From Nemertoderma westbladi (lineage: Eukaryota > Animalia > Xenacoelomorpha), in NCBI GenBank assembly GCA_032718475.1, contig JAUCBJ010007581.1, positions 1 through 40,432 of the forward strand: a DNA stretch of 40,432 nt, written 5' to 3'. The notes under the pieces are model-generated. The model did no database searches. It was not told where the DNA came from and saw nothing but the letters and a program-made list of their open reading frames with translations. Position numbers and translations under genes: made by a program. Each line of letters starts with the position of its first letter. The stretch's first letter is position 1. This document shows, piece after piece, positions 4,246 to 35,077 of the stretch.

Positions 4246-4320
4246 CATAGCATAGCATAGCATAGCATAGCATAGCATAGCATATCATAGCATAGCATAG
4301 CATAGCACAGCACAGCACAG
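4246..4320. repeat. (CATAG)n/(CACAG)n pentanucleotide microsatellite
   Basis: Direct reading, about 15 units. Confidence 0.95.
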
Positions 4321-8989: not shown

Positions 8990-9110
8990 ATTAATATTAT
9001 ATTAATATATTATTAATTATATAATATAATATTAATATATTATTAATTATATAATATAATATTAATATATTATTAATTATATAATATAATATTAATTATA
9101 ATTATTAATA
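8990..9110. repeat. 30-bp AT-only tandem repeat (ATTAATATATTATTAATTATATAATATAAT)
   Basis: Exact copies start at 9001, 9031 and 9061; the repeat lies at the point where the transposase ORF is truncated. Confidence 0.9.
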
Positions 9111-9698: not shown

Positions 9699-10460
9699 CT
9701 CGACGTTTCTTCACTCCACATGTAAAATATATACCAATGCAGCATAAAATAATGCATAAAACAGGTAAGAGCAGAGATAAAATGTCTAACTGTGACAGAA
9801 TGATCAGCTGATAATAGGCCTACCAAACTAGCTGTGCTTTTATTCAGATTATTGCTATAAAAATGTAAAAAGATGTAGTGTGCTATCAGTTTGAATTTCC
9901 CTCCAATTTGGTGCAGCCAATGACAGCGTCTTAACTGCTCAGCTGAATTTCAATGTAGATTTATTTTTAATTTTTCACATTTATCCCTCTCAGATTTGAA
10001 AATTTTGAAATTAATATTGGACTACATCCATCATAGCACAGTCAGATATAGTTACTTTAACAATTTTTATTATGTGGGTTGATTCGCCTGACTGAGATAA
10101 ATCCCAAACTATTTAGTTTTCCAAAAAAGACCGATTGGTGCTCGAGAAATAGCAGTTTAAAGATCAAAATTTTATGAATTTCGTTTTCAATTGAGTTTAT
10201 CTCAAAATGACATATCCATACACAAATGCCCCATTATTTCCAAAAGTTTTCGACCAAATTACTCAATATTTTGATTGAAGGTGTGGAATGACATGTCACA
10301 AACATTGAACTAGAATTTTGATATGAGCATTACTATTTTTAAATTATTAATAAACTTTTGAGCTGAATAGTGCTAAATTATTAACTATTATTAATAAGAT
10401 TAAAAAGTTAAGGAAGTTATTAATTTTTTTCAATAATTCTAGTTCAATGAGTTATATTAA

Positions 10461-12820: not shown

Positions 12821-15800
12821 TTAGGAACCGAGAGGTTCATTACTGTAAGAATTGTTGGCTGACTGGCTGGCTGGCTGGCTGGCTGGTTAATCTATAGCCA
12901 AAACTACTCTAACGATTTTGATGAAATTTTCACAGCGGCTGGATACCGCGATTCTAAGGTCCCTGGTATGTTCCGCTATTTCGTCCATGAGCCATGGGCT
13001 CGAAAAATAGACATAAACGAAAAAACGCCATAGGCGCAATGGTAAAATAACACCAATAACAGCTGGTGTCGTGATGAAAAATGGCTTATGTAATGGATTT
13101 ATACACAAGGCTTAGTATAAATCGATGAGGTTGCCAAGATTATTGTACTTAGTACACCCATACTGTTTGTTTAGGCCCTAGGACACTCTGTCAAAGCAAA
13201 TATTAACTGGTTGGTTTAGTTAGAAATCTATTATCGCCTCAGCTGAATTACTCTTCCCAATGCATTCTATGAGAATATCTCACTCTGCTAATGTAAGCTG
13301 AATGACTTTAAGTACACAGTGTGTTGGCTACATTAATGCCAACATTATTGCAAAATGTTTTATTGTTGGATTACTCTCTGTCAGTCTCCCCTTCAGAACA
13401 TTGTATAGGGAATTTACTTTAGTTTACTCTACTGTGCCATTCAGCTGAATGGATTTGAGCGATTGCCAAGTTACAGAGTTGTATCATTCTCTGACCATAG
13501 GCAAAGACAAATCTTTTTAAAAATATAATTTTTCCATGTTTTTTTTTCTGACCAAAAATTTCAAAAAAAAATTTTCGTAGCCAGTACTGCCAATCGATTC
13601 GCCATCAAAAATAACGCAAAAAATTTTTTTTGCAAAATTTTAAATTACTGTAAATTTTTGGCGACTGGGGGGGGTCAATTTTTTTCGATCCGCTATAACT
13701 CCGGAACGCTTTGTCCAAATTCGATGGGGTTTTTATTTTTCAACTTAATTCGATGTCCTCTTTCAGTCTATCCATGTTTCGAAACCCCAAACAGCGCCGT
13801 TCAAAATTAATTGATTGACTGGCTGACTGGTTAATCTATAGCCAAAACTACTCTAACGATTTTGATGAAATTTTCACAGCGGCTGGATACCGCGATTCTA
13901 AGGTCCCTGGTATGTTCCGCTATTTCGTCCATGAGCCGTGGGCTCGAAAAATAGACATAAACGAAAAAACGCCATAGGCGCAATGGTAAAATATCACCAA
14001 TAACAGCTGGTGTCGTGATGAAAAATGGCTTACGTAATGGATTTCTACACAAGGCTTAGTATAAATCGATGAGGTTGCCAAGATTATTCACTTAGTACAC
14101 CAATACTGTTTGTTTAGGCCCTAGGACACTCTGTCAAAGCAAATATTAACTGGTTGGTTTAGTTAGAAATCTATTATCGCCTCAGCTGAATTACTCTTCC
14201 CAATGCGCACTCTATGGGAATATCTCCCTCTGCTAATGTAAGCTGAATGACTTAAGTACACAGTGAGTTGGCTACATTAATGTCAACATTATTACAAAAT
14301 GTTTTATTGTTGGACTCTCTGTCAGTCTCCCCTTCAGAACATTGTATAGGGAATATACTTTAGTTTACTCTACTGTGCCATTCAGCTGAATGGATTTGAG
14401 CGATTGCCAAGTTACAGAGTTGGATCATTCTCTGACCATAGGCAAAGACATCAAATCTTTTTAAAAATATAATTTTTCCATGTTTTTTTTCTGACCAAAA
14501 ATTTCAAAAAAAAATTTTTCATAGCCAGTACTGTCAATCGATTTGCCATCAAAAATAACGCAAAAAATTTTTTTTGCAAAATTTTAAATTACTGTAAATT
14601 TTTGGCGACTGGGGGGGGGTCAATTTTTTTCGATCCGCTATAACTCCGGAACGCTTTGTCCAAATTCGATGGGGTTTTCATTTTTCAACTTAATTCGATG
14701 TCCTCTTTCAGCCTATCCATGTTTCGAAACCCCAAACAGAGCCGTTCAAAAATTAATTTTTTCTAGTTCTAGAATTTTACAAATTTCAAAAAAGTTGCAG
14801 TATTTTATTAACGCCTTTACGGAATTCGATAGCGTTTTCGATTTTTATATTAAACGCAATATCCTGAATCTCACTAGCCTAGTTTCGCGTCACCAATGCC
14901 AAGACTTCATACTTTTTGAGGAAAATTTTTCTAGAATAATTTTTATTTAATAACATTTATCGCGATTTCTTATTACTGGTTGCACATGAACTGATGGAGT
15001 TTTCAATTTATTAACTAAACACGATATCGCGCATCGCACCAGCGTGGTTTCGAAATTCCAAAACGAGGTCTTCACTAGTTGCAGGTCGATTTTGTTCTAG
15101 AATTGAGCAAATAATAATAGATCAAATTTATTAATAATTATTGTATGAAATATGATTGTATTTTTACATAATTATTAGTTTTATACTAATTCTCGATGTC
15201 TCTTTTAAATTAAAATAAAAAGTCGGTTCCTTAGCGGGCCGCTAGGCCCGTCACTAGTTAGGAACCGAGAGGTTCATTACTGTAAGAATTGCTCGTGGCT
15301 GACTGATTGACTGACTGACTGACTGACCTACAGCCAAAACTACTCTAACGATTTTGATGAAATTTTCACAGCAGCTAGATACCGCGATTCTAAGGTCCCT
15401 GGCATGATCGGCTACTCCGTCCATAGCCTCTGTGTTCGAAAAATAGAGATAAACGAAAAAACGCCATAGGCGCAATGGTAAAATAACACCAATGACAGCT
15501 GGTGTCCTGATGAAAAATGGCTTATCTAATGCATTTCTACACAAGGCTTAGTAATAAATCGATGAGGTTGCCAAGATTATTATTATTATACTTAGTACAC
15601 TCATACTGTTTATTTAGGCCCTACCAACCACTCACCACTCTCTGGCAATGCAAACATTAACTGGTTGGTTTAGTTTGAAATCTAGTATCGCCTCAGCTGA
15701 ATAACTCTTCCCAATGCATTCTAGGGGAGTATCCAAGTTTCTCCCTCTGCTAATGTAAGCTGAATGACTTAAGTACACAGTGAGTTGGCTACATTAATGT

Positions 15801-18800
15801 CAACATTATTACAAAATGTTTTATTGTTGGACTCTCTGTCAGTCTCCCCTTCAGAACATTGTATAGGGAATATACTTTAGTTTACTCTACTGTGCCATTC
15901 AGCTGAATGGATTTGAGCGATTGCCAAGTTACAGAGTTGGATCATTCTCTGACCATAGGCAAAGACATCAAATCTTGTTAAAATATACTTTTTCCATGTT
16001 TTTTTTTCTGACCAAAAATTTCAAAAAAAATTTTTCGTAGCCAGTACTGTCAATCGATTTGCCATCAAAAATAACGCCAAAATTTTTTTTTGCAAAATTT
16101 TAAATTACTGTAAATTTTTGGCGACTGGGGGGGGGTCAATTTTTTTCGATCCGCTATAACTCCGGAACGCTTTGTCCAAATTCGATGGGGTTTTCATTTT
16201 TCAACTTAATTCGATGTCCTCTTTCAGCATATCCATGTTTCGAAACCCCAAACACCGCCGTTCAAAAATAAATTTTTTCTCGTTCTAGAATTTTACAAAT
16301 TTCAAAAAAGTTGCAGTATTTTATTAACGCCTTTACGGAATTCGATAGCGTTTTCGATTTTTATATTAAACGCAATATCCTGAATCTCACTAGCCTAGTT
16401 TCGCGTCACCAATGCCAAGACTTCATACTTTTTGAGGAAAATTTTTCTAGAATAATTTTAATTTAATTACATTTATCGCGTTTTCTTATTACTGGATGCA
16501 CATGAATTGATGGAGTTATCAATTTATTAACTAAACACGATATCGCGCATCGCACCAGCGTGGTTTCGAAATTCCAAAACGAGGTCTTCACTAGTTGCAG
16601 GTCGATTTTGTTCTAGAATTGAGCAAATAATAATAGATCGAATTTATTAATAATTATTGTATGAAATATGATTGTATTTTTACATAATTATTAGTTTTAT
16701 ACTAATTCTCGATGTCTCTTTTAAATTAAAATAAAAAGTCGGTTCCTTAGCGGGCCGCTAGGCCCGTCACTAGTTAGGAACCGAGAGGTTCATTACTGTA
16801 AGAATTGCTCGAGACTGGCTGGCTGGCTGACTGACTGACTAATCTACAGCCAAAACTACTCTAACGATTTTGATGAAATTTTCACAGCGGCTAGATACCG
16901 CGATTCTAAGGTCCCTGGTATGTTCCGCTATTTCGTCCATGAGCCGTGGGCTCGAAAAATAGACATAAACGAAAAAACGCCATAGGCGCAATGGTAAAAT
17001 AACACCCATGACAGCTGGTGTCGTGATGAAAAATGGCTTATGTAATGCATTTCTACAGAAGGCTTAGTAATAAATCGATGAGGTTGCCAAGATTATTATA
17101 CTCAGTACACCCATACTGTTTGTATAGGCCACCACTCTCTGTCAAAGCAAACATTATGAACTGGTTGGTTTAGTTTGAAATCTAATATCGCCTCAGCTGA
17201 ATTACTCTTCCCAATGCAATCTATGGGAATATCTCACTCTGCTAATGTAAGCTGAATGACTGTTACGTACACAGTGAGTTGGCTACATTAATGCCAACAT
17301 TATTGCAAGATGTTTTATTGTTGGATTACTCTCTGTCAGTCACCCCTTCAGAACATTGTATAGGGAATTTACTTTAGTTTACTCTACTGTGCAATTCAGC
17401 TGAATGGATTTGAGCGATTGCCAAGTTACAGAGTTGGATCATTCTCTGACCATAGGCAAAGACATCAAATCTTTTTAAAAATATACTTTTTCCATGTTTT
17501 TTTCTGACCAAAAATTTCAAAAAAAAATTTTTCGTAGCCAGTACTGCCAATCGATTCGCCATCAAAAATAACGCAAAAAATTTTTTTTGCAAAATTTTAA
17601 ATTACTGTAAATTTTTGGCGACTGGGGGGGGGTCAATTTTTTTCGATCCGCTATAACTCCGGAACGCTTTGTCCAAATTCGATGGGGTTTTTATTTTTCA
17701 ACTTAATTAGATGTCCTCTTTCAGCCTATCCATGTTTCGAAACCCCAAACAGCGCCGTTCAAAAATTAATTTTTTCTAGTTCTAGAATTTTACAAATTTC
17801 AAAAAAGTTGCAGTATTTTATTAACGCCTTTACGGAATTCGATAGCGTTTTCGATTTCTATATTAAACGCAATATCCTGAATCTCACTAGCCTAGTTTCG
17901 CGTCACCAACGCCAAGACTTCATACTTTTTGAGGAAAATTTTTCTAGAATAATTTTTATTTAATTACATTATAGCGATTTCTTATTACTGGTTGCACATG
18001 AATTGATGGAGTTTTCACTTTATTAACTAAACACGATATCGCGCATCGCACCAGCGTGGTTTCGAAATTCCAAAACGAGGTTTTCACTAGTTGCAGGTCG
18101 ATTTTGTTCTAGAATTGCGCAACTAATAATAGATCGAATTTATTAATAATTATTGTATGAAATATGATTGTATTTTTACATAATTATTAGTTCTATACTT
18201 ATTCTCGTTGTCTCTTTTATTTAAAATAAAAAGTCGGTTCCTTATCAGGCCGCTAGGCCCGTCACTAGTTAGGAACCGAGAGGTTCATTACTGTAAGAAT
18301 TGCTCGTGGCTGACTGATTGACTGACTGACTGACTGACCTACAGCCAAAACTACTCTAACGATTTTGATGAAATTTTCACAGCAGCTAGATACCGCGATT
18401 CTAAGGTCCCTGGCATGATCGGCTACTCCGTCCATAGCCTCTGTGTTCGAAAAATAGAGATAAACGAAAAAACGCCATAGGCGCAATGGTAAAATAACAC
18501 CAATGACAGCTGGTGTCCTGATGAAAAATGGCTTATCTAATGCATTTCTACACAAGGCTTAGTAATAAATCGATGAGGTTGCCAAGATTATTATTATTAT
18601 ACTTAGTACACTCATACTGTTTATTTAGGCCCTACCAACCACTCACCACTCTCTGGCAATGCAAACATTAACTGGTTGGTTTAGTTTGAAATCTAGTATC
18701 GCCTCAGCTGAATAACTCTTCCCAATGCATTCTAGGGGAGTATCCAAGTTTCTCCCTCTGCTAATGTAAGCTGAATGACTGTTAAGTACACAGTGTGTTG

Positions 18801-19785
18801 GCTACATTAATGCCAACATTATTGCAAAATGTTTTATTGTTTGATTACTCTCTGTCAGTCTCCCCTTCAGAACATTGTATAGGAAATTTACTTTAGTTTA
18901 CTCTACTGTGCCATTCAGCTGAATGGATTTGAGCGATTGCCAAGTTACAGAGTTGGATCATTCTCTGACCATAGGCAAAGGCAAATCTTGTTAAAATATA
19001 CTTTTTCCATGTTTTTTTTTCTGACCAAAAATTTCAAAAAAAATTTTTCGTAGCCAGTACTGCCAATCGATTCGCCATCAAAAATAACGCCAAAATTTTT
19101 TTTTGCAAAATTTTAAATTACTGTAAATTTTTGGCGACTGGGGGGGGGTCAATTTTTTTCGATCCGCTATAACTCCGGAACGCTTTGTCCAAATTCGATG
19201 GGGTTTTCATTTTTCAACTTAATTCGATGTCCTCTTTCAGCATATCCATGTTTCGAAACCCCAAACACCGCCGTTCAAAAATAAATTTTTTCTCGTTCTA
19301 GAATTTTACAAATTTCAAAAAAGTTGCAGTATTTTATTAACGCCTTTACGGAATTCGATAGCGTTTTCGATTTTTATATTAAACGCAATATCCTGAATCT
19401 CACTAGCCTAGTTTCGCGTCACCAATGCCAAGACTTCATATCTTTTGAGGAAAATTTTTCTAGAATAATTTTAATTTAATTACATTTATCGCGTTTTCTT
19501 ATTACTGGATGCACATGAATTGATGGAGTTATCAATTTATTAACTAAACACGATATCGCGCATCGCACCAGCATGGTTTCGAAATTTCAAAACGAGGTCT
19601 TCACTAGTTGCAGGTCGATTTTGTTCTAGAATGGAGCAACTAATAATAGATCGAATTTATTAATAATTATTGTATGAAATATGATTGTATTTATACATAA
19701 TTATTAGTTCTATACTAATTCTCGTTGTCTCTTTTATTTAAAATAAAAAGTCGGTTCCTTATCGGGCCGCTAGGCCCGTCACTAG
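12821..19785 (+). mobile_element. Five type-A HINE-like units (12821-~13810, ~13811-15257, 15258-16773, 16774-18268, 18269-19785)
   Basis: CTAG ends at 15257, 16773, 18268 and 19785; near-identical ~1.5-kb non-coding body. Confidence 0.85.
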
Positions 19786-20868
19786 TATAATTATTAGCAA
19801 GTCGTTAGACTTGATTACTGTAAGAATTGTTAGCTGACTGGCTGACTGACTGGCTGACTGACTGGCTGACTGACTGGCTGACTGACTGGCTGACTGACTG
19901 GCTGATCTACAGCCAAAACTGCTCTAACGATTTTGATGAAATTTTCACAGCATCTAGATACCGCGATTCTAAGGTCCCTGGCATGATCGGCTACTCCGTC
20001 CATAGCCTCTGGGCTCGAAAAATAGAGATAAACGAAAAAAACGCCATAGGCGCAATGGTAAAATAACACCCATGACAGCTGGTGTCCTGATGAAAAATGG
20101 CTTATGTAATGCATTTCTACACATGGCTTAATGTAAGGCTTAGTAAATAATAAATCGATGAGGTTGCCAAGATTATTGTACTTAGTACACCCATACTGTT
20201 TGTTTAGGCCCTGCACTCTCTGTCAAAGCAAATATTAACTGGTTGATTTAGTTTGTGGTTCTACACAGGCTTAGTATAAATCGATGAGGCTGCCAACTGG
20301 TTGGTTTAGTTTGCAATCTATTACCGCCTCAGCTGAATAACTCTTCCCCCTGCTGAATGACTATTAGGTATACAGTGTATCGGCTACATTAATGCCAACA
20401 TTAATACTGTGGAGGCTGTATGCTTATAAGGTGGAATGTTTACTCAGCCTTATACTGATACTCTGTAAGGCTAAGACTAACATTATAGTTTGAAAAATAT
20501 AAAAATCACTTCTTATTATCTGTATTGGGTTAATAATCACTGTGGCATTCAAAATGTTTTATAGGTGATTGACATTTAGTGCAAGCTGAATGACTGTTAG
20601 TTACAGAGTACTACTGCACTGTATTTTATTTTTAAATCTTTCGTCCAACATTAATACTTTGGAGGTTATATGCTTATAAGGCGAATGTTTACTCAGCTTC
20701 ATACTGATACACTGTAAGGCTAACACTGACGTTATAGTTTAAAACATAAAAATCACTGGTTATTATCTGTATCAGGTTACACACTGTGGCATTCAAAATG
20801 TTTAAATGTTTTATAGGTGATTGATATTTAGTGCAAGCTGAATGACTGTAGGTTACAGAGTACTATTG

Positions 20869-21620
20869 TACGGTGGCTGATTTAGGCCACATTTAATTTA
20901 ATTTTTTTTCGAAGAGGATTAAGAAAAAAAATAAACTAAATTATATTATTTAGGGGATTAAGAAAACAGAAACAAATTAAACTAAATTATGCGAATATTG
21001 ATTTCTGATTGGTTGAAAAAATAAATAAACTAAATTAAGTTATTTCTGATTGGTTTAAAAAATAAATAAACTAAATTAACTGTATTTCTGATTGGTTGAA
21101 AAAATAAATAAACTAAATTAAGTATATTTCTGATTGGTTGAAAAAATAAATAAACTAAATTAAGTTATTTCTGATTGGTTAAAAAAATAAATAAACTAAA
21201 TTAACTGTATTTCTGATTGGTTGAAAAAATAAATAAACTAAATTAAGTTATTTCTGATTGGTTGAAAAAATAAATAAACTAAATTAAGTTATTTCTGATC
21301 GGTTAAAAAAATAAATAAACTAAATTAACTGTATTTCTGATTGGTTGAAAAAATAAATAAACTAAATTAAGTTATTTCTGATTGGTTGAAAAGATAAATA
21401 AACTAAATTAAGTTATTTCTGATTGGTTGAAAAAATAAGTAAACTAAATTAAGGGAGGTTTCTGATTGGTTGAAAAAATAAATAAACTAAATTAAGTATA
21501 TTTCTGATTGGTTGAAAAAATAAATAAACTAAATTAAGTTATTTCTGATTGGTTAAAAAAATAAATAAACTAAATTAACTGTATTTCTGATTGGTTGAAA
21601 AACTAGATAAACTAAATTAT
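20869..21620 (+). repeat. Left TIR: ~132-bp outer segment plus 15 copies of a 41-42-bp repeat (TTTCTGATTGGTTGAAAAAATAAATAAACTAAATTAA-variable)
   Basis: Counted CTGAT(T/C)GG cores between 21001 and 21620. Confidence 0.95.
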
Positions 21621-21723
21621 ACAGTCTGACTCGAGGCTAGTCAGATATTGGACTACTGCTTTAGTCAGTGTAGTTAGTTGGAGTGGAGTCATGTACTATC
21701 TTACCCGGTACTGTTGTTAGATT

Positions 21724-22977
21724 ATGACTCCTACGGCATGCTATTTGTTGATCAGTATATTTACCATGTCGTCCAGTCTTACAGAAGGGTCGGATCAGTA
21801 TGCAAAGTTACTAGAGGATTACTTTTGGAAGGGTTACCAGCATAAAGAAATATGTACTCTCCTTTCTAGTAATGACGGATTCCCAGTGACTTCTTCTAGG
21901 ACTGTTAGAAGAAATTTAAATAAACTAGGCTTAATAAAGCGATTTAATCCTCTCCAGTTCCCCACTGTTATATCTACTATGATAGAAGAAATAAGTAAAG
22001 ATATGAACACGAGTGGCCTTGGTTATAGGCAAATGCAGAAGTTATTATTGTTAAATCATAAATTATATGTACCGAAAAAGTTAGTTGGTCAACTCCTTCG
22101 TTTATTAGAACCGAACGCAGTTAGGAGAAGGATTAGTAGGAAAGTGGTCAGACGTACTTATATTTCAAAGGGCCCAAATTACTTACTACACATAGATGGG
22201 TGGGACAAGCTAAAGCCCTACGGTTTGGCTGTTCATGGGGGAATCGACGGCTATAGCCGTAAACTATTCTGGCTTAAATGCCATCGCACGAATAATGATC
22301 CGTTTATAATCGGTGAATATTTTATTGATGCCCTTAAAGAGCTAGGCGGTGTCCCGCACATTATTAGGTCTGATCGTGGCACAGAAAACGTCAATGCAGA
22401 ATTCTTTCAACGACTTTTACGTCTATATGAACTAAATATTTCTGATCCACAAGTTTTTATATATGGAAAAAGCACGCGCAATCAGCGCATTGAATCATGG
22501 TGGTCTAAGTTCCCAATGCTCGGCATGCAAACTTGGTTGTCTCACTTTGGATCGCTGGAAATTTATGGCATTATAGACACATCTAATAATCTACATATTG
22601 AGATAGTGCGTTACGTTTATTTAGACTTACTTCAAAGAACACTTGACTCTATTAGAATTCAATGGAATAGCCACCGACTTCGTAAAAGTGGACTTATTTC
22701 ACCTGGGGGTAAACCTGACATATTGTTTGTCGATAATCCAAACTATTTGCATCCAGTTAGTATAGAGGATATCAATCTGATTGACAGATTTAACTCGGTA
22801 ATGACAATTAACATGCGAACATGCCGAAGGTCTGTATCAAACATCTGTGACTATTACTTATCAAGAAACCCACATATTATATCTCCTCAGCAAAGTAGTA
22901 CGTTATGGCAATGTGCCGATGTATTGGTATATCTAATAGATTCAATCGAACAAGCATTGGTTAATGTAGTAGTGTGA
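21724..22977 (+). CDS. Integrase-core (IS3/retroviral-like) DDE transposase, apparently intact, 417 aa
   Basis: N-terminal HTH-like region (GYQHKEIC..SSRTVRRNLNKLGL), LGYRQM, RRTYISKGPNYLLHIDGWDKLKPYGLAVHGGIDGYSRK (D158), IIRSDRGTEN (D217), GKSTRNQRIESWW (E257), WNSHRLR..GKPDILF. The true start may be the ATG at 21766. Confidence 0.92.
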   Translation: MTPTACYLLISIFTMSSSLTEGSDQYAKLLEDYFWKGYQHKEICTLLSSNDGFPVTSSRTVRRNLNKLGLIKRFNPLQFPTVISTMIEEISKDMNTSGLGYRQMQKLLLLNHKLYVPKKLVGQLLRLLEPNAVRRRISRKVVRRTYISKGPNYLLHIDGWDKLKPYGLAVHGGIDGYSRKLFWLKCHRTNNDPFIIGEYFIDALKELGGVPHIIRSDRGTENVNAEFFQRLLRLYELNISDPQVFIYGKSTRNQRIESWWSKFPMLGMQTWLSHFGSLEIYGIIDTSNNLHIEIVRYVYLDLLQRTLDSIRIQWNSHRLRKSGLISPGGKPDILFVDNPNYLHPVSIEDINLIDRFNSVMTINMRTCRRSVSNICDYYLSRNPHIISPQQSSTLWQCADVLVYLIDSIEQALVNVVV

Positions 22978-23590
22978 ATTCAACATTATGTGTACTATAT
23001 TATATCAATATATATGTTATATAATAATATGTATTGTTAAAATTTATATTTTTTACCCCTCAGTCAATGGTAGCGGTAAATAAGATTTGCATTATTTACT
23101 TAGGTAAATGAGGATTATTACTCTTCAATCAACCAACTTTGTACCCCCCCCCCCCCCCCCCATCCACAACAGGCTGGTACAGTTCATGTCGTTGTTTTCA
23201 GTCGAGAAGGGTGCAGGTTATATAGTGACGGACCGATTGTAACCAAAACAACAAACGAGACTCGATAGCACATGTTACATATTAATTTTATACTAGTAAT
23301 CAGCTGTAACTAAGGATCTATCTAAGTCGCAGGACATTATGTGTGTATTACGTGTGAACTGAAAAGCAAATCACATCAAATCCCCCCCCCCCCCCCCCCT
23401 CTCTTACCAAACCTCCGGCTCCGGAGGGGGGACTTCAGCAACTGAAAAAGGTTGTAAACAAACTTGAACGCAACTAATTATTGAAAATAAGAAGAAAGAT
23501 TATTTGTATCTAAAAAATAACACAATTAATATACAATAAAAAATAACACAATTAATATACAATAACACTTTCTTTACATCATTGTATTGA

Positions 23591-25578
23591 TCAATAATCT
23601 GAAAATAAGTACCCCATTCCGTTCATGAGTAGTTTCTGTATCTCTTCCTTCAACTCCATATAGGAGTTATAGTCTGTTGGTAACGTTAACAGTGGGGTAC
23701 ATGTTCTCGCAGTTATCGAACGTCCGAAACTCGATTGGAACTTGTCCTCCTTGAAAAATCCAACCACAATAAATTCACATACAAGAAGATTTGAACCAGT
23801 AACAAATCGAACGAATGCTTCCAATAACTTTGGGTCGAACTCCCTCAACATCTTTTTAAGATAACCTTGAATCTCGATCTCGAGTTGCGCCTTTGACATA
23901 TCTAAGGGGAAGTTTAGTTTTTTCCACAAACTAGAGTTTCTGGTGTAATCCCGGTCTTTGCAACAGTCTCACCAAAATAAGCAAACTTACAGAATATGCT
24001 TGATATCCTTATCGGCCAGTATCCTTCATTAACAAATCCATACCAAGCTACTTTCGCAATAATATGCCACATCTCCTCTGTCCAGTCGTGTCTAACAGTG
24101 GGTACAAGAGCACTGGAACCTTTTGTCCCCTTCAGATAGAATTCTTCCCAAAAAAGCGTTAACATTTCTCGTGTCAATCCTTTATCATCTATACCCCTCT
24201 CATCCACAAAACTTACGTCCAGTAAATTCACCGTTATATTATCAAGGGCAGTAAATACTCCTATAACATCATTGAATAGATTACTTCTATTAAGTATCAC
24301 TGAGACCTTCTTATTGCCACCCGAAATATCGGCTTCATCATCATAGGTAATAATTTCGTCAATATCTGCTGAGTTATCTAAAAAGTCACCGTATCTCAGA
24401 GGTGGTCTTGCATTTCGCCTTGGACGAGATAAACCATCATTTCGAAGACCAGTATCGTTACTAGACGTACACTGACCATCTTCAAACTGGCGGCTGTAGA
24501 AGACCGATCGTCTTTCAGCCAGTTGTTCTCGGGATATTTCTATGTCGTTATCTTCTTCTGGAACTACAGTTGCACTTGAGAGCATTGGATCTACACCTGT
24601 TTCTGCCGCCAAAATTTCAACTTCGACTTCAACATCCATTGTATCATCATACACTGGTACCGGTACTTCAATAAACTCCTCATCACCTTCAGGTCCTTTA
24701 GATTTGTCTACTGCTAAACTTATATTATATTCATAATCTTGGCGACAAACTAAACATTTACCATTGATCACTTCTATAGCAGAACCAGTGCGACCACAAT
24801 TACACCGGATTCCAGGATCATCCACTACCGGTACCGGTACGCCTATGGTAGTAGTAGTAGTAGTGAAAGAAGATTTTTTCTTACATAAAAGAGATATTGT
24901 AGGAATCCCTACTATTTTACCACTCTCTAAGAACTTCTCCAGTGACTCAAAGCTTTCGATACTATCACCGAACGTATTTGTGACTGTACAAAAATAGTCA
25001 TCTCTATTACAAGCTTTCTTCAGTACTTTTAGAGCCCTGTTTTCCCCACCTTCACTAGAGAAAATGGTATTAATTAAACTTTCACGAACTTCCTGCATTG
25101 TCTGGTTCACCCTGAGTTTAAGTCCAAGTTTATTTGATCCCCCCAGAGGATGTTTTAGAACTTTATGACCACGTCCAGTATCAATGCTACAAGTAAAATG
25201 TATTGTTCGTATTGCCTCTAACGGACGTCCTACAGATCTAGAAATAGGCCTTCGAGTAGATAGCACATCTTGACGGCGATGTTGCAACCGCCGTGTACCA
25301 GAACTTAGACTCCGCTGGTTATGTGAAATTCTAATAGGATTATTGGCATTGTCACTAATTGTACCCTGAGTTAATTGCCCAGCTTCCATATATAGGTTTG
25401 AGTGTGAACCATTTACATGACCTGTCAGGCGTGATGTACCAGTAGAGGAAGACCTATTAGTATCAACTGATGCAGAATCATGAAATATGCGATAAACTTC
25501 ATCCACACGGAGATAGGTATCCCTCCTTAAGTCTGTTAAAAGCCGCCGTTTCTCCTGATCATCAGGCCCCCCTTCCAT
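23591..25578 (-). pseudogene. HECT-type E3 ubiquitin ligase-like second ORF, split by a frameshift near 23914-23970
   Basis: ORF 23914-25578 ends with a HECT N-lobe start (LNRSNLFNDVI..VSFVDERGIDDKGLTREMLTLFWEEF..GYWPI). ORF 23591-23929 is a HECT C-lobe (LLEAFVRFVTGS..ITARTCTPLLTLPTDYNSYMELKEEI) with the putative catalytic Cys codon at 23699-23701. Confidence 0.85.
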
Positions 25579-26327
25579 TTAGTAGGCTAATAGATTAAAA
25601 CAGTAAAAATCCGGCATGTAGGCCTATACTTCCAGCGGCTGCGGCACCCGGCTGCCCGGTATGCCGGTTTTTGGGTTGCCTTGTCAGCTTGTCGGTAGCG
25701 GTCAGCCGGTACTGTGGTACTAACTAACTACTGTACAGGTACCTGATCCATGTTCAGTTCAACCGTTCAGTCGTCAGACCGTAAGGGTACTGCTTAACAG
25801 TTTAATATAATACAGGTCTGCCGGTACTACAGTACGACCAGCTACAGAACTAGGTACCACTGCTCACTGTGTACAGCTGTACTGTACCCCGCCTTGGCTG
25901 CTTGGTACCTGGCTGCCTGGTGCTGGTGCACATACATCGGTCGATCGGTGATAGACTGATAGGTAGATACCGGTACGTAATGACGTAGGCCTAGGTATTA
26001 ATTAATTACTGCAGTAGGCCTACTGATTACAGTAGTAAAACACAACAGCAGAAGCTGAGAACAGTCCTGCCATCAAACACAACACAGACAAACGAAGCGC
26101 TTATTCATCAGGATAGCATACAGGCATACTGGCACCACTACCTGACTACTACACTACACCGCTACATGTACCAGTACTACAGTTTAACAGTAGCCTCCCT
26201 TACCATGTGGTTGGTGATTCTATTCATACATCTGTACATCATACAGCAGTACAGCATACAGACATATACCACACACAGACCACGGCCAGGCAGTACTGCA
26301 GTACACCAGTACCACAAACTGGCAGTT

Positions 26328-27186
26328 AACCAATCAGAAATAACTTAATTTAGTTTATTTATTTTTTCAACCAATCAAAAATAACTTAATTTAGTTTATT
26401 TATTTTTTCAACCAATCAGAAATATTTTAATTTAGTTTATTTATTTTTTCAACCAATCAGAAATATACTTAATTTAGTTTATTTATTTTTTCAACCAATC
26501 AGAAATATTTTAATTTAGTTTATTTATTTTTTCAACCAATCAGAAATATACTTAATTTAGTTTATTTATTTTTTCAACCAATCAGAAACCTCCCTTAATT
26601 TAGTTTATTTATTTTTTCAACCAATCAGAAATAACTTAATTTAGTTTATTTATTTTTTCAACCAATCAGAAATAACTTAATTTAGTTTATTTATTTTTTC
26701 AACCAATCAGAAATAAAGCTAATTTAGTTTATTTATTTTTTCAACCAATCAGAAATATACTTAATTTAGTTTATTTATTTTTTCAACCAATCAGAAACCT
26801 CCCTTAATTTAGTTTATTTATTTTTTCAACCAATCAGAAATAACTTAATTTAGTTTATTTATTTTTTCAACCAATCAGAAATAACTTAATTTAGTTTATT
26901 TATTTTTTCAACCAATCAGAAATACAGTTAATTTAGTTTATTTATTTTTTCAACCAATCAGAAATAACTTAATTTAGTTTATTTATTATTTCAACCAATC
27001 AGAAATATACTTAATTTAGTTTATTTATTTTTTCAACCAATCAGAAATCAAAATCAATATTCACATAATTTAGTTTAATTTGTTTCTGTTTTCTTAATCC
27101 CCTAAATAATATAATTTAGTTTATTTTTTTCTTAATCCTCTTTGAAAAAAAAATTTAATTAAATGTGGCCTAAATCAGCCACCGTA
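26328..27186 (-). repeat. Right TIR: ~18 inverted copies of the 41-42-bp CCAAT repeat plus outer segment
   Basis: Counted AACCAATCA cores between 26328 and ~27048; ~27055-27186 is the reverse complement of 20869-21000 with a few mismatches. Confidence 0.95.
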
Positions 27187-27659
27187 CTATTGCACTGTAT
27201 TTTATTTTTAAATCTTTTGGCCAACATTAATACTGTGGAGGCTGTATGCTTATAAGGTGGAATGATTACTCAGCCTCATACTGATACTCTGTAAGGCTTA
27301 CACTAACATTATAGTTTGAAATATAAAAATAACTGCTTATTATCTGTATTGGGTTAATCACTGTGTCATTCAAAATGTTTTGTTAGGTGAATGATATTCA
27401 GTGGCTAAGATTATTCTGTGTCAGATTCCCTTCACACCATAGGCAAACGTTGTTGAGGCTGAGGGAATTTACTTTAGTTTACTCTACTGAGTCATTCAGC
27501 TGAATGGATTTGAGCAATTGCCAAATGACAGAGTGGGATCTCTCTCTGACCATAGGTAAATAACACTTCCCTTCTGAACAAAGGTAAACATTGTTGAGGG
27601 AACTTACCTTTGATTGACGACTTCCGACTTGCTTAACGGCGTCTTGACGCCGTCTCTAG

Positions 27660-29842
27660 TTAGGAACCGAGAGGTTCATTACTGTAAGAATTGTTGACTG
27701 ACTGGCTGGCTGACTGACTGGCTGACTGGCTGATCTACAGCCAAAACTACTCTAACGATTTTGATGAAATTTTCACAGCGGCTGGATACCGCGATTCTAA
27801 GGTCCCTGGTATGTTCCGCTATTTCGTCCATGAGCCGTGGGCTCGAAAAATAGACATAAACGAAAAAACGCCATAGGCGCAATGGTAAAATATCACCAAT
27901 AACAGCTGGTGTCGTGATGAAAAATGGCTTACGTAATGGATTTCTACACAAGGCTTAGTATAAATCGATGAGGTTGCCAAGATTATTCACTTAGTACACC
28001 AATACTGTTTGTTTAGGCCCTAGGACACTCTGTCAAAGCAAATATTAACTGGTTGGTTTAGTTAGAAATCTATTATCGCCTCAGCTGAATTACTCTTCCC
28101 AATGCGCACTCTATAGGAATATCTCCCTCTGCTAATGTAAGCTGAATGACTGTTACGTACACAGTGAGTTGGCTACATTAATGCCAACATTATTGCAAAA
28201 TGTTTTATTGTTGGATTACTCTCTGTCAGTCACCCCTTCAGAACATTGTATAGGGAATTTACTTTAGTTTACTCTACTGTGCCATTCAGCTGAATGGATT
28301 TGAGCGATTGCCAAGTTACAGAGTTGGATCATTCTCTGACCATAGGCAAAGACATCAAATCTTTTTAAAAATATACTTTTTCCATGTTTTTTTTTCTGAC
28401 CAAAAATTTCAAAAAAAAATTTTTCGTAGCCAGTACTGCCAATCGATTCGCCATCAAAAATAACGCAAAAAATTTTTTTTGCAAAATTTTAAATTACTGT
28501 AAATTTTTGGCGACTGGGGGGGGTCAATTTTTTTCGATCCGCTATAACTCCGGAACGCTTTGTCCAAATTCGATGGGGTTTTCATTTTTCAACTTAATTA
28601 GATGTCCTCTTTCAGTCTATCCATGTTTCCAAACCGCAAACAGCGCCGTTCAAAAATTAATTTTTTCCAGTTCTAGAATTTTACAAATTTCAAAAAAGTT
28701 GCAGTATTTTATTAACGCCTTTACGGAATTCGATAGCGTTTTCGATTTTTATATTAAACGCAATATCCTGAATCTCACTAGCCTAGTTTCGCGTCACCAA
28801 CGCCAAGACTTCATACTTTTTGAGGAAATTTTTTCTAGAATAATTATTATTTAATTACATTTATCGCGATTTCTTATTACTGGTTGCACATGAATTGATG
28901 GAGTTTTCAATTTATTAACTAAACACGATATCGCGCATCGCACCAGCGTGGTTTCGAAATTCCATTGCGCCCTTCGAGCAGCACGTGAGTTACATCAAAT
29001 AATAGACACACTGTTTCACTTTGTCCCTTCGAGCAGCACGTGAGTTTGGCTTTGACCCTTCGAGCAGCGTGTGTCAATTGAGCTGAATCATACCAATCGA
29101 GCCAAATAGAACCAATCGTGGCGATCAAGTAGAGTCGAGCCCAATTGAGCCGAGTCAAGCCGAACGGAGCCGAGTTGAGCCCAATCAAGCCGAGTCGAGC
29201 CAGACTGAGCCGAGTAAAGCCCAATCGAGTCGAATCGAGTTGAGTCGACTCAGACCGAGCCGAGTCGAGCCGTGTCACGCAAAATTGAGCCGGACTGAGT
29301 CGAGTCGAGACCAATCAAGCTGAGTCGAGCCCAATCGAGCCGAGTCGAGCCGCATGTAGCCGAGTTGAACCTAATCAAGCCGAGTCGAGCCAGACTGATT
29401 CGACTCGAGTCCAATAGCGCGGAGTCGAGCCCAATCAAGCCTAGTCGAGCCAAATTGAGCCGGACCGAACCCAGTCGAGCCCAATCGAGCCGGACTGAGC
29501 CAAATTGAGCCAAATCGAGCCGAGTCAAGCCCAATCAATCCCAATCGAGCCGATTCGAGCCCAATCGAGCCGAGTCGAGACCAATCAAGCCGATTCGAGC
29601 CCAATTGAGCCAAGTGGAGCCGGACCGAGCCGAGTTGAACCAAATGAAGCCGATTGAGACGAATTGAGCTGAGTCGAGTCGAGCCCAATCAAGCCGAGTC
29701 GAGCCCAATTGAGCCAAACCGAGCCGATCAAGCCAAGTCGAACTGAATCGAGCCCAATCGTGCCAGACTGAGCCGAGCTCGTTGTCTCTTTTATTTGAAA
29801 TAAAAAGTCGGTTCCTTATCGGGCCGCTAGGCCCGTCACTAG
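27660..29842 (+). mobile_element. Chimeric HINE-like unit: type-A body switching at ~28964 to a type-C 3' region
   Basis: Type-A sequence up to TTTCGAAATTCCA, then CCCTTCGAGCAGCACGTGAG repeats and a degenerate GAGCC/GAGTC/CAATC tract, then the normal 3' end. Confidence 0.8.
29078..29779. repeat. Degenerate 5-bp-period satellite (GAGCC/GAGTC/CAATC/AAGCC)
   Basis: Direct reading. Confidence 0.9.
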
Positions 29843-32473
29843 TTAGGAACCGAGAGGTTCATTACTGTAAGAATTGTTGCTGACTGGCTGACTGACTGGC
29901 TGGCTGACTGATCTACAGCCAAAACTACTCTAACGATTTTGATGAAATTTTCACAGCGGCTGGATACCGCGATTCTAAGGTCCCTGGTATGTTCCGCTAT
30001 TTCGTCCATGAGCCGTGGGCTCGAAAAATAGACATAAACGAAAAAACGCCATAGGCGCAATGATAAAAACACCAGCTGGCACTCATGAAAAATGGATAGA
30101 GAAAGCCTAGTAATGCTATTCTATAGGAATGGCCACCTAACAAGGAAATGCTTTCTCTGCCAAGTATTATCCTCACTCTACAACTCAGACAGTAAGCAAA
30201 CAAAAGCCGTGGGATTCTAATGTATTACATCATAAGCTGATTGCTCTCCCAATAGCCCTCACACACTCACTGAATCGAATGAAATCGAATATCTATTAGC
30301 TTAATGCGAATAGCTGGTAAGCTGAATGCCATTTTAGTTATTGTGTACTGTTGATTGCAGAGTAGACTGCTATGTTGTATGTATTTAATTAAAATAATTT
30401 TCGTAGAGGGAAGTTAATTTGGGATTACTTTCTATCAGATGTAAGCAAAGCTGTTCAATGGGGTGGGTCATGGGACCCAAATATAGTACATTATGCATGG
30501 CAAACATTAATAAAATCATTCAGTCAACCTGGAGGGTATTTGCTTAGTTAACTCTACTGTGCGAAAAACGAATTTATAATGTTACCCATACTTCAGGTGA
30601 ATGAATTTTTAGATATTTGTACTGAAGGCAACGATTTCTGATATAATTAAAATACAAGACAGGGGCTTGTTTCGATATATGTAGTTGCGCCCTTCTAGCA
30701 GCACGTGAGATGATCAAATAATAGACACAATGTTTGACTTTGTCCCTTCGAGCAGCACGTGAGTTTTGCTTTGACCCTTCAATATATGTATTTGCGCCCT
30801 TCGAGCAGCACGTGAATTACATCAAATAATAGACACATTGTTTGACTTTGTCCCTTCGAGCAGCACGTGAGTTTTGCTTTGACCCTTCGATATATGTATT
30901 TGCGCCCTTCGAGCAGCACGGGGAGTCGACTCAGACCGAGCCAAGCCAAGCCGAGCCGAGCCGAGCCGAGCCGAGCCGAGCCGAGCCGAGCCGAGCCGAG
31001 CCGAGCCGAGCCGAGCCGAGCCGTGCCGAGCCAAGCCGAGCCGAGCCGAGCCGAGCCGAGCCGAGCCAAGCCGAGCTGAACCGAGCCGAGCCGAGCCGAG
31101 CCGTGCCGAGCCGAGCCGAGCCGAGCCGAGCCGAGCCGAGCCGAGCCGAGCCGAGCCGAGCCGAGCCGAGCCGAGCCGAGCCGAGCCGAGCCGAGCCGAG
31201 CCGAGCCGAGCCGAGCCGAGCCGAGCCGAGCCGAGCCGAGCCGAGCCGAGCCGAGCCGAGCCGAGCCGAGCCGAGCCGAGCCGAGCCGAGCCGAGCCGAG
31301 CCGAGCCGAGCCGAGCCGAGCCGAGCCGAGCCGAGCCGAGCCGAGCCGAGCCGAGCCGAGCCGAGCCGAGCCGAGCCGAGCTGAGCCGAGCCTAATCGAG
31401 CCGAGCCGAGCCGAGCCGAGCCGAGCCGAGCCGAGCCGAGCCGAGCCGAGCCGAGCCTGAGCCGAGCCGAGCCGAGCCTAATCGAGCCGAGCCTAATCGA
31501 GCCGAGCCGAGCCGAGCCGAGCCGAGCCGAGCCGAGCCGAGCCGAGCCGAGCCGAGCCGAGCCGAGCCGAGCCGAGCCGAGCCGAGCCGAGCCGAGCCGA
31601 GCCGAGCCGAGCCGAGCCGAGCCGAGCCGAGCCGAGCCGAGCCGAGCCGAGCCGAGCCGAGCCGAGCCGAGCCGAGCCGAGCCGAGCCGAGCCGAGCCGA
31701 GCCGAGCCGAGCCGAGCCGAGCCGTGCCGAGCCGAGCCGAGCCGAGCCGAGCCGAGCCGAGCCGAGCCAGGCCGAGCCAAGCCGAGCCGAGCCGAGCCGA
31801 GCCGAGCCGAGCCGAGCCGAGCCGAGCCGAGCCGAGCCGAGCCAAGCCGAGCCGAGCCGAGCCGAGCCGAGCCGAGCCGAGCCGAGCCGAGCCGAGCCGA
31901 GCCGAGCCGAGCCGAGCCGAGCCTGAGCCGAGCCTAATCGAGCCGAGCCGAGCCGAGCCAGCCGAGCCGAGCCGAGCCGAGCCGAGCCGAGCCGAGCCGA
32001 GCCGAGCCGAGCCGAGCCGAGCCGAGCCGAGCCGAGCCGAGCCGAGCCGAGCCGAGCCGAGCCGAGCCGAGCCGAGCCGAGCCGAGCCGAGCCGAGCCGA
32101 GCCGAGCCGAGCCGAGCCGAGCCGAGCCGAGCCGAGCCGAGCCGAGCCGAGCCAAGCCAGGCCGAGCCGAGCCGAGCCGAGCCGAGGCCGAGCCGAGCCA
32201 GCCAGCCGAGCCGAGCCTAATCGAGCCGAGCCGAGCCGAGCCAGCCGAGCCGAGCCGAGCCGAGCCGAGCCGAGCCGAGCCGAGCCGAGCCGAGCCGAGC
32301 CGAGCCGAGCCGAGCCGAGCCAGGCCGAGCCGAGCCTAATCGAGCCAAACCGAGCCGATCAAGCCAAGTCGAACTTAATCGTGCCCAATCGTGCAAGACC
32401 GAGCCGAGCTCGTTGTCTCTTTTATTTGAAATAAAAAGTCGGTTCCTTATCGGGCCGCTAGGCCCGTCACTAG
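29843..32473 (+). mobile_element. Type-C HINE-like unit (type-A termini, different interior, long GAGCC tract)
   Basis: Diverges from type A after ~30060; interior is repeated at ~33500-34370. Confidence 0.8.
30935..32408. repeat. (GAGCC)n satellite, ~1.47 kb, nearly pure
   Basis: Direct reading. Confidence 0.97.
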
Positions 32474-35077
32474 TTAGGAACCGAGAGGTTCATTACTGTA
32501 AGAATTGTTGGCTGATTGATTGATTGACTGGCTGGCTGATCTACAGTCAAAACTACTCTAACGATTTTGATGAAATCTTCACAGCGGCTAGATACCGCGA
32601 TTCTAAGGTCCCTGGTATGTTCCGCTATTTCGTCCATGAGCCGTGGGCTCGAAAAATAGACATAAACGAAAAAACGCCATTGGCGCAATGGTAAAATATC
32701 ACCAATAACAGCTGGTGTCGTGATGAAAAATGGCTTATGTAATGGATTTCTACACAAGGCTTAGTATAAATCGATGAGGTTGCCAAGATTATTGTACTCA
32801 AGATTATTGTACTCAGTACACCCATACTGTTTGTTTAGGCCCTGTCAAAGCAAATATAAACTGGTTGGTTTAGTTTGAAATCTATTATTGCCTCAGCTGA
32901 ATAACTCTTCCCAATGCATTCTAGTTGAGTATCCAAGTTTCTCCCTCTGCTAATGTAAGCTGAATGACGGTTTAGTACACAGTAGTGTGTTGGCTACATT
33001 AATGCCAACATTATTGCAAAATGTTTTATTGTTGGATTACTCTCTGTCAGTCTCCCCTTCAGAACATTGTATAGGGAATTTACTTTAGTTTACTCTACTG
33101 TGCCATTCAGCTGAATGGATTTGAGCGATTGCCAAGTTACAGAGTTGGATCATTCTCTGACCATAGGCAAAGACATCAAATCTTTTTAAAAAGATACTTT
33201 TTCTGTTTTTTTTTCTGACCAAAAATTTCAAAAAAAATTTTTTGTAGCCAGTACTGCCAATCGATTCGCCATCAAAAATAACGCAAAAAAATTTTTTTGC
33301 AAAATTTTAAATTACTGTAAGAATTGCTCGAGACTGGCTGACTGACTGACTAATCTACAGCCAAAACTACTCTAACGATTTTGATAAAATTTTCACAGCG
33401 GCTAGATACCGCGATTCTAAGGTCCCTGGTATGTTCCGCTATTTCGTCCATGAGCCGTGGGCTCGAAAAATAGACATAAACGAAAAAACGCCATAGGCGC
33501 AATGATAAAAACACCAGCTGGCACTCATGAAAAATGGATAGAGATGGCCTAGTAATGCTATTCTATAGGAATGGCCACCTAACAAGGAAATGCTTTCTCT
33601 GCCAAGTATTATCCTCACTCTACAACTCAGACAGTAAGCAAACAAAAGCTGTGGGATTCTAATGTATTACATCATAAGCTGATTGCTCTCCCAATAGCCC
33701 TCACACACTCACTGAATCCAATGAAATCGAACATCTATTAGCTTAATGCGAATAGCTGGTAAGCTGAATGCCATTTTAGTTATTGTGTACTGTTGATAGC
33801 AGAGTTGACTACTATGTTGTATGTATTTAATTAAAATAATTTTCGAAGAGGGAAGTTAATTTGGGATTACTTTCTATCAGATGTAAGCAAAGCTGTTCAA
33901 TGGGGTGGGTCATGGGACCCAAATATACTACATTATGCATGGCAAACATGAATAAAATCATTCAGTCAACCTGAAGGGTATTTGCTTTAGTTAACTCTAC
34001 TGTGCGAAAAACGAATTTATAATGTTACCCATACTTCAGGTGAATGAATTTTTAGATATTTGTACTGAAGGCAACGATTTCTGATGTAATTAAAATACAA
34101 GACAGGGGCTTGTTTCGATATATGTAGTTGCGCCCTTCAAGCAGCACGTGAGATGATCAAATAATAGACACAATGTTTGACTTTGTCCCTTCGAGCAGCT
34201 CGTGAGTTTTGCTTTGACCCTTCGATATATGTATTTGCGCCCTTCGAGCAGCACGTGAATTACATAAAATAATAGACACATTGTTTGACTTTGTCCCTTC
34301 GAGCAGCACGTGAGTTTTGCTTTGACCCTTCGATATATGTATTTGCGCCCTTCGAGCAGCACGGGGAGTCGACTCAGACCGAGCCAAGCCGAGCCGAGCC
34401 GAGCCGAGCCGAGCCGAGCCGAGCCGAGCCGAGCCGAGCCGAGCCGAGCCGAGCCGAGCCGAGCCGAGCCGAGCCGAGCCGAGCTGAGCCGAGCAGAGCC
34501 GAGCCGAGCCGAGCCGAGCCGAGCCGAGCCGAGCCGAGCCGAGCCGAGCCGAGCCGAGCCGAGCCGAGCCGAGCCGAGCCGAGCCGAGCCGAGCCGAGCC
34601 GAGCCGAGCCGAGCCGAGCCGAGCCGTGCCGAGCCGAGCCGAGCCGAGCCGAGCCGAGCCGAGCCGAGCCGAGCCGAGCCGAGCCGAGCCGAGCCGAGCC
34701 GAGACGAGCCGAGCCGAGCCGAGCCGAGCCGAGCCGAGCCGAGCCGAGCCGAGCCGAGCCGAGCCGAGCCGAGCCGAGCCGAGCCGAGCCGAGCCGAGCC
34801 GAGCCGAGCCGAGCCGAGCCGGGCCGAGCCGAGCCGAGCCGAGCCGAGCCGAGCCGAGCCGGGCCGAGCCGAGCCGAGCCGAGCCGAGCCGAGCTGAGCC
34901 GGGCCGAGCCGAGCCGGGCCGGGCCGAGCCGAGCCGAGCCTAATCGAGCCAAACCGAGCTGATCAAGCCAAGTCGAACTTAATCGTGCCCAATCGTGCAA
35001 GACCGAGCCGAGCTCGTTGTCTCTTTTATTTGAAATAAAAAGTCGGTTCCTTATCGGGCCGCTAGGCCCGTCACTAG
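32474..35077 (+). mobile_element. Truncated type-A unit fused at ATTACTGTAA (33311-33320) to a second type-C unit
   Basis: Internal TTTTAAATTACTGTAA continues as GAATTGCTCGAGACTGG (unit 5' sequence); CTAG end at 35074-35077. Confidence 0.8.
34375..35012. repeat. (GAGCC)n satellite, ~0.64 kb
   Basis: Direct reading. Confidence 0.97.

Follow-up and report, generated by a model that had tools for sequence, protein, structure and literature searches.

The stretch of DNA analysed here, called the window, comprises positions 1 to 40,432 of contig JAUCBJ010007581.1 of Nemertoderma westbladi. It harbours a DNA transposon of 6318 bp (20869-27186) that carries an intact transposase gene on the forward strand and, converging on it, two pieces of a gene for a HECT-type ubiquitin ligase (E3), referred to below as open reading frame 2 (ORF2). 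What appears to be new, judged from sequence, is the anatomy of the second protein in this family: a conserved ubiquitin-fold domain that tracks the transposase (n=5), a catalytic domain that is swapped between elements, and a FAF1-like helix plus UBX domain in 8 loci.

The element has the termini TACGG..CCGTA; its left end opens with TACGGTGGC and its right end closes with GCCACCGTA, each of these words occurring once in the window. The target-site duplication (TSD) CTATTG stands on both sides, at 20863..20868 and 27187..27192. Both flanks are collinear with, and 85-91% alike to, the preceding unit of a 252-bp tandem repeat, in which CTACTG occurs once (20611..20616), as expected of an empty-site paralogue. 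The terminal inverted repeats (TIRs) are long and built of repeats. The left one (20869..21619, plus strand) has a unique outer part of about 135 bp from TACGGTGGC onwards, followed by 14.9 copies of a 41-42-bp unit; the right one (26328..27186, minus strand) has 17.3 copies of the unit and a unique outer part ending in CCGTA, and the two arrays stand in inverted orientation to each other. The first 30 bp of the TIRs are identical, and 3 mismatches and 3 one-base gaps are found in the outer 140 bp. The precise ends, the 6-bp TSD with its empty site and the repeat-built TIRs described in the first-pass annotation, which had been made from the letters of the window, are all borne out. Every TIR unit contains a CCAAT-box word (14 exact in 21001-21619, 18 in 26328-27048) facing the starts of both genes, and the arrays may serve as promoter arrays besides providing transposase-binding sites; the same word also occurs near the putative end of the related locus L026.

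The transposase gene (21724..22977, plus strand) encodes 417 aa, or 403 aa from a second ATG at 21766, and matches Pfam rva_4 at E 9e-34. Its triad D158, D217 and E257, already named in the earlier reading, is invariant in 40/40 and 61/61 aligned relatives in two alignments. By inspection it has no HHCC motif, and the first Asp, at residue 158, falls inside the 100-300 range of the IS3EU definition. Named relatives at 33-39% identity come from a limpet, a brachiopod, corals, a sea anemone, a nemertean and a bryozoan, and the core, compared by eye with IS3EU-1_CGi_2p (supplement of PMC10045372), shows about half identity. We assign the element to the IS3EU/GingerRoot superfamily, as proposed earlier, because its ends, 6-bp TSD and DDE core fit the published definitions in the accessible parts of PMC10045372 and PMC12730594: TAYGG..CCRTA termini, a 6-bp TSD, TIRs longer than 30 bp and an integrase-like DDE core without HHCC. 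The insertion is evidently young, also in agreement with the earlier view; besides the near-identical outer TIRs, only 2/1460 bases over the transposase region differ between the window and contigs of runs X1-X3, which represent two other samples. An internally deleted derivative was seen in run X4; it skips 21831-24169, with the HECT C-lobe and the greater part of the transposase missing, and is about 99% alike in the retained parts.

The second gene in the window and across the family

The first-pass annotation described a single convergent ORF with both HECT lobes, and this does not hold for the window. The HECT motifs are divided between two frames: the N-lobe part closes a frame of 554 aa (25578-23914), and the C-lobe with its ARTC is encoded in another of 125 aa (23968-23591). 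Expressed as gene pieces on the minus strand, the 5' piece (23938..25578) starts with an ATG at 25578 and ends in the first part of the N-lobe (profile match 24240-23962), and the 3' piece (23591..23935), out of frame with it, holds the C-lobe with the Cys codon at 23701-23699. Pfam finds HECT only in the 3' piece, at E 7e-5 and 23.1 bits, below the cut-off of 23.9; against the family profile of 318 positions, the pieces match positions 12-104 (E 5e-19) and 225-310 (E 2e-15). Between them, at 23936..23937, is the junction left by a frameshifting deletion that removed 292 bp from mid-HECT. One X1 contig and one X3 contig span this point with 292 bases more than the window, contigs of X2 (same sample as X3) have loose ends on both sides of it, and the window form of the junction is crossed by 0 of 18 aligned records. 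The frames are 1610 bases apart, and 1610 + 292 = 1902 = 634 codons; therefore, the longer form has both parts in one frame. A 6-bp duplication at 23871, within the C-lobe piece, is private to the window, and after its removal the undeleted form has about 757 codons. Hand translation of 30 letters at each side of the extra stretch in the sister copies gave no stop in the expected frames, and we infer that the frame is open through its remaining 230 bases. Thus the ligase gene of this copy, frameshifted and short of about 97 codons, is dead, by a real deletion or an assembly error, and is apparently whole in sister copies. An intron as the cause of the split was ruled out: the sister contigs are longer, not shorter, and profile positions 105-224 are absent. 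The window C-lobe alone gave no sequence match in the PDB, and a word-index search with the N-lobe piece gave no match, which is weak evidence. The top phmmer match (P0124) was dropped as a chance match to a repeat protein.

The family was surveyed in 80 loci, the best of at least 451 metagenome stretches encoding a related transposase, with profiles derived from 17 ORFs of these loci. Of the 80, 30 carry a gene for a HECT protein or a kinase, always downstream and on the opposite strand, i.e. convergent. Among the 33 loci with at least 2 kb downstream, 26 have such a cargo gene (15 HECT type A, 8 HECT type B and 3 kinase; 7 have none); the count is 18/20 with 3 kb downstream and 11/11 with 4 kb. 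The cargo-bearing loci form 26 clusters at 90% transposase identity. Because locus-built profiles are partly circular, Pfam was run independently on 41 locus ORFs and 1 window piece, and it found HECT in 17 loci (15 over the cut-off) and kinase in 3. The cargo belongs to the element physically as well: it lies inside the right end in L048 and L056, it is flanked by inverted repeat arrays in L028 and L072, and in L053 it is enclosed by TACGGTGGC ends on both sides, 24/25 bases alike, with no TSD, possibly in a collapsed assembly. In the kinase elements (L063:5579-6847, L066:2956-4352 and L072:2632-4908), a Ser/Thr kinase (Pfam E to 4e-50) takes the place of HECT. The earlier claim that the element carries a ubiquitin E3 gene is therefore right for the family, in which the HECT gene is real, and has to be restricted in two ways: the ligase is dead in this copy, and three loci carry a kinase instead. 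Beside the element of L044 (8493-9341) is an ORF that by eye resembles a major capsid protein of the Polinton/adintovirus type and has no Pfam match.

The HECT domain is divergent and recognisable. The family profile matches 52 solved HECT sequences in the PDB, including TOM1 (best, E 1e-10), HUWE1 and RSP5. We chose 45 full C-lobes for completeness, from 8 loci and 37 of 150 phmmer matches; at about 28-58% identity, the catalytic Cys is invariant in 45/45 of this selection, in the form AHTC in 37, GHTC in 3, ARTC, as in the window, in 2 and other forms in 3. Two pairs had a measurable dS, which is similar in both genes; in these, the ratio of nonsynonymous to synonymous substitution rates (dN/dS) is 0.19 and 0.055 for HECT (Fisher p 3e-9 and 1e-5) and, for the transposase, 0.14 and 0.09. 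Another pair proved too close, and the rest were saturated. The helix plus UBX gave 0.25 and the N-terminal module 0.19. One member of these pairs, L016, carries one stop. On this evidence the HECT gene is under purifying selection, and the second gene qualifies as a standing family gene rather than a one-off capture, because of co-occurrence, the conserved Cys and dN/dS. These were the marks by which the first-pass annotation had suggested that such a gene be recognised, and all of them were found. Relatives of ORF2 (P0125-P0273; 5 of 10 clusters named) are annotated as uncharacterised or 'HECT domain-containing' in oyster, scallop, pearl oyster and beetle, and one has been placed in the genome bin of a bacterial symbiont, probably through host contamination.

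Anatomy of the second protein and its link to the transposase

The N-terminal module of the relatives consists of a small helical part and a ubiquitin-fold domain, the latter found in 64 of 161 proteins scanned. In the loci it is found in 6, including the kinase element L072, at E 3e-22 to 8e-32, these loci being themselves part of the profile; in L072, it precedes the kinase in one 759-aa frame. A structure predicted from a 51-sequence alignment has a predicted local distance difference test score (pLDDT) of 89 and a beta-grasp fold. Compared with ubiquitin-like structures, it reaches a best Z of 9.3, with a root-mean-square deviation of 2.1 over 79 residues, and many rows at Z 7-8; a Foldseek search with the N-terminal domain model gave no match at E <=0.001, with ubiquitin-like folds in the top rows. 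The predicted fold of this domain, which the HECT and kinase versions have in common, is ubiquitin-like. The helical part looks SAM-like (Atlas score 0.77), which is a lead only. Atlas assigned no family to residues 20-215 of the relative P0128, and a word-index search with the N-terminal exon of L028 among longer proteins found no match, which is weak evidence.

Behind the N-terminal module, a helix and a UBX domain follow in 8 loci; 13 HECT loci have 3.8 kb or more of downstream sequence, and these 8 are among them. Three of these (L014, L044 and L048) are outside the profile set and match at E 3e-27, 7e-24 and 1e-35; Pfam UBX is over its cut-off in L015 and L028 and below it in L003. The best PDB match of the L028 helix plus UBX is human FAF1 (E 5e-6), with I, K, Y and L at the positions of FAF1 V507, K508, Y515 and L519. 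In FAF1, as described in the accessible parts of PMC12630741 and PMC12965308, these residues bind ubiquitin or UFD1, and helix plus UBX is the minimal p97-stimulating unit of FAF1/2. The UBX domain appears to be joined to the ligase: UBX and the HECT start are in one frame in L015, and frame-compatible GT..AG sites join them in L028, L016, L019 and L003, 4 of the 6 other loci tested.

In the window protein, a FAF1/FAF2-like ubiquitin-binding-helix motif is found at 24706..24753 (minus strand; aa 276-291), in which L276, Y284 and L288 align with FAF1 V507, Y515 and L519; the K508 equivalent is not conserved. The core motif arises in 8/200,000 shuffles. It is immediately preceded by a four-cysteine, zinc-finger-like and putatively metal-binding stretch (24745..24804, minus strand; aa 259-278), and the relative P0250 has a similar stretch followed by the same helix motif. 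Upstream, at 24859..25233 (minus strand; aa 116-240), lies a candidate divergent copy of the family ubiquitin-fold domain with a profile score at shuffle level; residues 113-300 folded alone, from a single sequence, gave a pLDDT of 38.

Which parts of the second protein travel with the transposase bears on its function. The identity of the N-terminal module follows that of the transposase (rho 0.84, 4/120 permutations, only 5 elements). L016/L028 and L019, sisters on the transposase tree (92/92), share an N-terminal layout at 47% identity and have different HECT types, and the 3 kinase elements form a single group on this tree, in which the window is a long branch and broken ORFs were entered as joined pieces. 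This pattern suggests a docking module tied to the transposase together with an exchangeable enzyme, part of which metagenome chimeras could mimic. A model of the complex between the transposase and the N-terminal module of L028 scored 0.50, against 0.04 for the best control, with at least 44% of contacts shared between runs and a partner pLDDT of at least 65. Scores at or below 0.60 need caution: in the calibration, only 5 among 78 solved pairs passed in this range, as did every one of the 4 mismatches that passed, and because of this a docking call for L028 would be wrong more often than right unless docking was likely beforehand. The model, which is of this relative and not of the window proteins, thus argues weakly for docking of the N-terminal module on the cognate transposase.

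Possible roles of the second protein

We tentatively propose, with slightly less than even confidence, that ORF2 docks on the transposase of its own element, ubiquitinates it and passes it to p97, thus clearing the post-integration complex. The protein would have to be made and be active as an E3; its N-terminal module would bind the cognate transposase, which would be the ubiquitination substrate. The helix and UBX would then bring in p97-UFD1-NPL4, and versions lacking UBX, such as that of the window, would use host adaptors. The purpose would be to remove the stable complex left after integration, so that gaps could be repaired and the 6-bp TSD formed. The kinase versions may act on the same docked target by phosphorylating it, and the window copy would supply transposase and depend on sister copies for the ligase. 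Beyond the sequence anatomy, all of these steps are ones that we infer. The fuller version, in which animal IS3EU elements encode a one-chain machine that combines a ubiquitin-fold module for docking on the transposase with a p97 adaptor derived from FAF1 and an interchangeable HECT or kinase, and that disassembles their own post-integration complex as a eukaryotic counterpart of ClpX on Mu, is possible and more doubtful. The first-pass annotation had offered three possible functions with no preference among them: removal of the transpososome, tuning of transposase levels and targeting of host silencing factors. The helix plus UBX in relatives and the co-variation of the N-terminal module favour removal of the transposase through p97.

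Several observations on the protein itself weigh against this proposal. The p97 hook is a subset feature, because the helix motif is found in only 1 of 149 relatives of the window ORF2 and UBX in 0 of the 161 proteins scanned. The window protein gave no UBX match by Pfam or by the locus-built profile, and the hhalign score of its ubiquitin-fold candidate was matched by 6/60 shuffles in local and 2/60 in global mode, so that the domain is not established here; in the same shuffle test, the N-terminus of L053 was matched by 0/60, a weak pass. With the pattern used, no frame-compatible splice pair was found in L048 or L014. The contact between UBX domains and p97 involves an R...FPR signature; its FPR loop is not conserved in the 8 UBX loci, FPH being present in 1 of them, and its first-strand Arg is present in 6. 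The ligase raises doubts of its own. The residue fourth from the end is Phe in canonical HECT domains, whereas it is Met in 32 of the 45 C-lobes, and this strong divergence would suit a non-catalytic HECT, with ORF2 acting as a scaffold or targeting subunit like the second proteins of other DNA transposons. Human G2E3, of a divergent HECT class, is likewise reported to have a non-functional HECT (PMC3673628, in the part accessible). We nevertheless hold a non-catalytic role to be improbable, as the Cys is kept in 45/45 and (A/G)HTC in 40/45 despite the low identity and a ubiquitin-binding helix is present in the same chain.

The remaining objections concern the target. Across 13 elements, HECT and transposase distances are uncorrelated (rho 0.09, 1537/5000 permutations). 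On the transposase tree, type A and type B HECTs are intermixed, and well-supported branches force at least 4 changes. Both results fit swapping, host-directed targets or chimeric assemblies. Catalytic domains that are swapped between lineages, off the transposase tree, are what an arms race might produce, and an alternative that we consider rather unlikely, though well ahead of the other rivals, is that the E3 or kinase marks host chromatin or piRNA (PIWI-interacting RNA)-pathway proteins for p97 extraction and degradation, thus keeping the element expressed. The helix and UBX would be equally suited to removing host proteins from chromatin, and fungal IS3EU elements carry TET/JBP dioxygenase and alpha-kinase genes that the accessible part of PMC12730594 proposes as a means of escape from methylation silencing. 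Against a host target stand the N-terminal module, which co-varies with the transposase (n=5) and docks on it, with weak support, in the model, and a dN/dS that is low throughout, nothing in the two measurable pairs pointing to rapid evolution. The same partner evidence would serve equally well if ORF2 were a brake that ubiquitinates free transposase for degradation, limiting transposition and harm to the host. Elements without cargo do exist: none was found in 7 of the 33 loci with at least 2 kb downstream, where no recognisable ORF was seen by eye, a further point against the proposed clearance. A trans-acting brake would, however, be easily lost by selfish copies, yet purifying selection is seen across 26 transposase clusters, and a p97 adaptor would be needed more for DNA-locked complexes than for free protein, as far as the accessible parts of PMC12630741 and PMC9941556 indicate; we rate a brake as unlikely, if marginally less so than a non-catalytic role. 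Finally, the HECT gene is broken in the window copy and in several loci (e.g. L016 and L048), and gene fragments are known cargo of GingerRoot elements (PMC6839031, accessible part), as would suit a host gene captured by chance and decaying neutrally. This reading is largely refuted and very improbable, given the identical position and orientation in 30/30 cargo-bearing loci, dN/dS far below 1 and sister copies that bridge the deletion.

Parts of this picture have precedents. IS3EU itself, ubiquitin domains in other transposons and an opposite-strand alpha-kinase in fungal IS3EU are already known. The element shares TA..TA ends, the 6-bp TSD and the integrase-like DDE core without HHCC with IS3EU/GingerRoot as described in the accessible part of PMC10045372, and it differs in its TIRs of 750-860 bp made of tandem units, compared with 100-150 bp in GingerRoot. 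The TET+ IS3EU elements of rust fungi (PMC12730594, in part) have the same TAYGG..CCRTA ends, 6-bp TSD and a gene for a protein-modifying enzyme, the alpha-kinase, opposite the transposase; here, in contrast, the opposite gene encodes a HECT E3 or Ser/Thr kinase behind a ubiquitin-fold domain, and there is no TET gene. The order of helix and UBX in 8 loci, with the helix alone in the window, recalls the UBH-UBX adaptors FAF1/FAF2 of p97-UFD1-NPL4 (PDB 11ta; accessible parts of PMC12630741 and PMC12965308), of which FAF1 has been linked to extraction of CMG and KU70/80 from DNA (PMC9941556, in part). Unlike FAF1/FAF2, the module is here fused to a HECT E3 on a transposon, no UBA or UAS was seen, the expected FPR loop is not kept and the window protein is without UBX. 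The RING of RAG1/Chapaev (PMC4411706) and the OTU, UCH, Ulp1 and F-box-associated domains of Helitrons (PMC11417382) are precedents for transposon-borne ubiquitin machinery; in the accessible parts of these sources they are a transposase-fused RING or proteases, neither a separate HECT gene nor a p97 adaptor. Highly divergent animal HECTs, some beside kinase domains in other lineages, make up the G2E3/GL-Metazoa class in the part of PMC3673628 at hand; this survey of HECTs has 0 matches for 'transpos'. A functional analogy only is offered by ClpX, the AAA+ unfoldase that disassembles the post-transposition complexes of Mu and of CRISPR-associated transposons (CAST), removing a DNA-locked transposase (PMC10055298, accessible part). 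There, a host unfoldase reads a degron on the transposase, whereas here both tagger and adaptor would come from the element itself.

We found no report of HECT or UBX in IS3EU in the literature. The word HECT has 0 occurrences in the main texts of PMC10045372, PMC12730594 (nor any in its supplement), PMC11934779, PMC6839031 and bioRxiv 10.1101/2021.09.26.461848, and the word ubiquitin 0 times in the text and supplement of PMC12730594 and in descriptions of IS3EU/GingerRoot including PMC10045372; Repbase entries, Kojima 2019 (Genes Genet Syst) and the bioRxiv supplements, which were outside this search, may name the domain, and an annotated second protein is suggested by the label IS3EU-1_CGi_2p. 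For a superfamily that has received little study, the second protein gains an identity, and among the gene models of molluscs, corals and insects, many that are called 'uncharacterised' or 'HECT domain-containing' may be transposon genes. How very stable eukaryotic transposase-DNA complexes are cleared after integration is poorly understood. A two-gene transposon with its own E3 and p97 adaptor would make this clearance testable in a small system and could suggest improvements to integrase tools; addition of ClpX raised CAST integration in human cells by about 100-fold, according to the accessible part of PMC10055298.

Spacer and surroundings of the element

The convergent 3' ends of the two genes are separated by a spacer (22978..23590) containing C-runs and hairpins as well as short stretches whose repetition in the species greatly exceeds that of the element. 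Within 23053-23523, such stretches have many more contigs over them than the element has, and a 26-bp tandem duplicate lies at 23511-23565; they are possibly small nested or shared repeats, the contig coverage of spacer and element being contig read depth and not copy number. The element is inserted in an array of tandem units of about 1.5 kb (12869-20860 and 27190-39400), 9-13 in number and as much as 98-100% alike; the array contains CTGA/CTGG microsatellites and may resemble Helitron-derived satellite arrays. Inside this array are long (CCGAG)n arrays of up to 285 copies (29132-29777, 30936-32358 and 34379-34959); one and the same 108-bp repeat precedes both the second and the third. Short ORFs that by eye resemble fragments of other mobile elements occupy 807-11367: one like a long interspersed nuclear element (LINE; 1829-2287), one like a retroviral-type protease (3196-4056), one Mutator-like (9073-9672) and one piggyBac-like (10840-11367).

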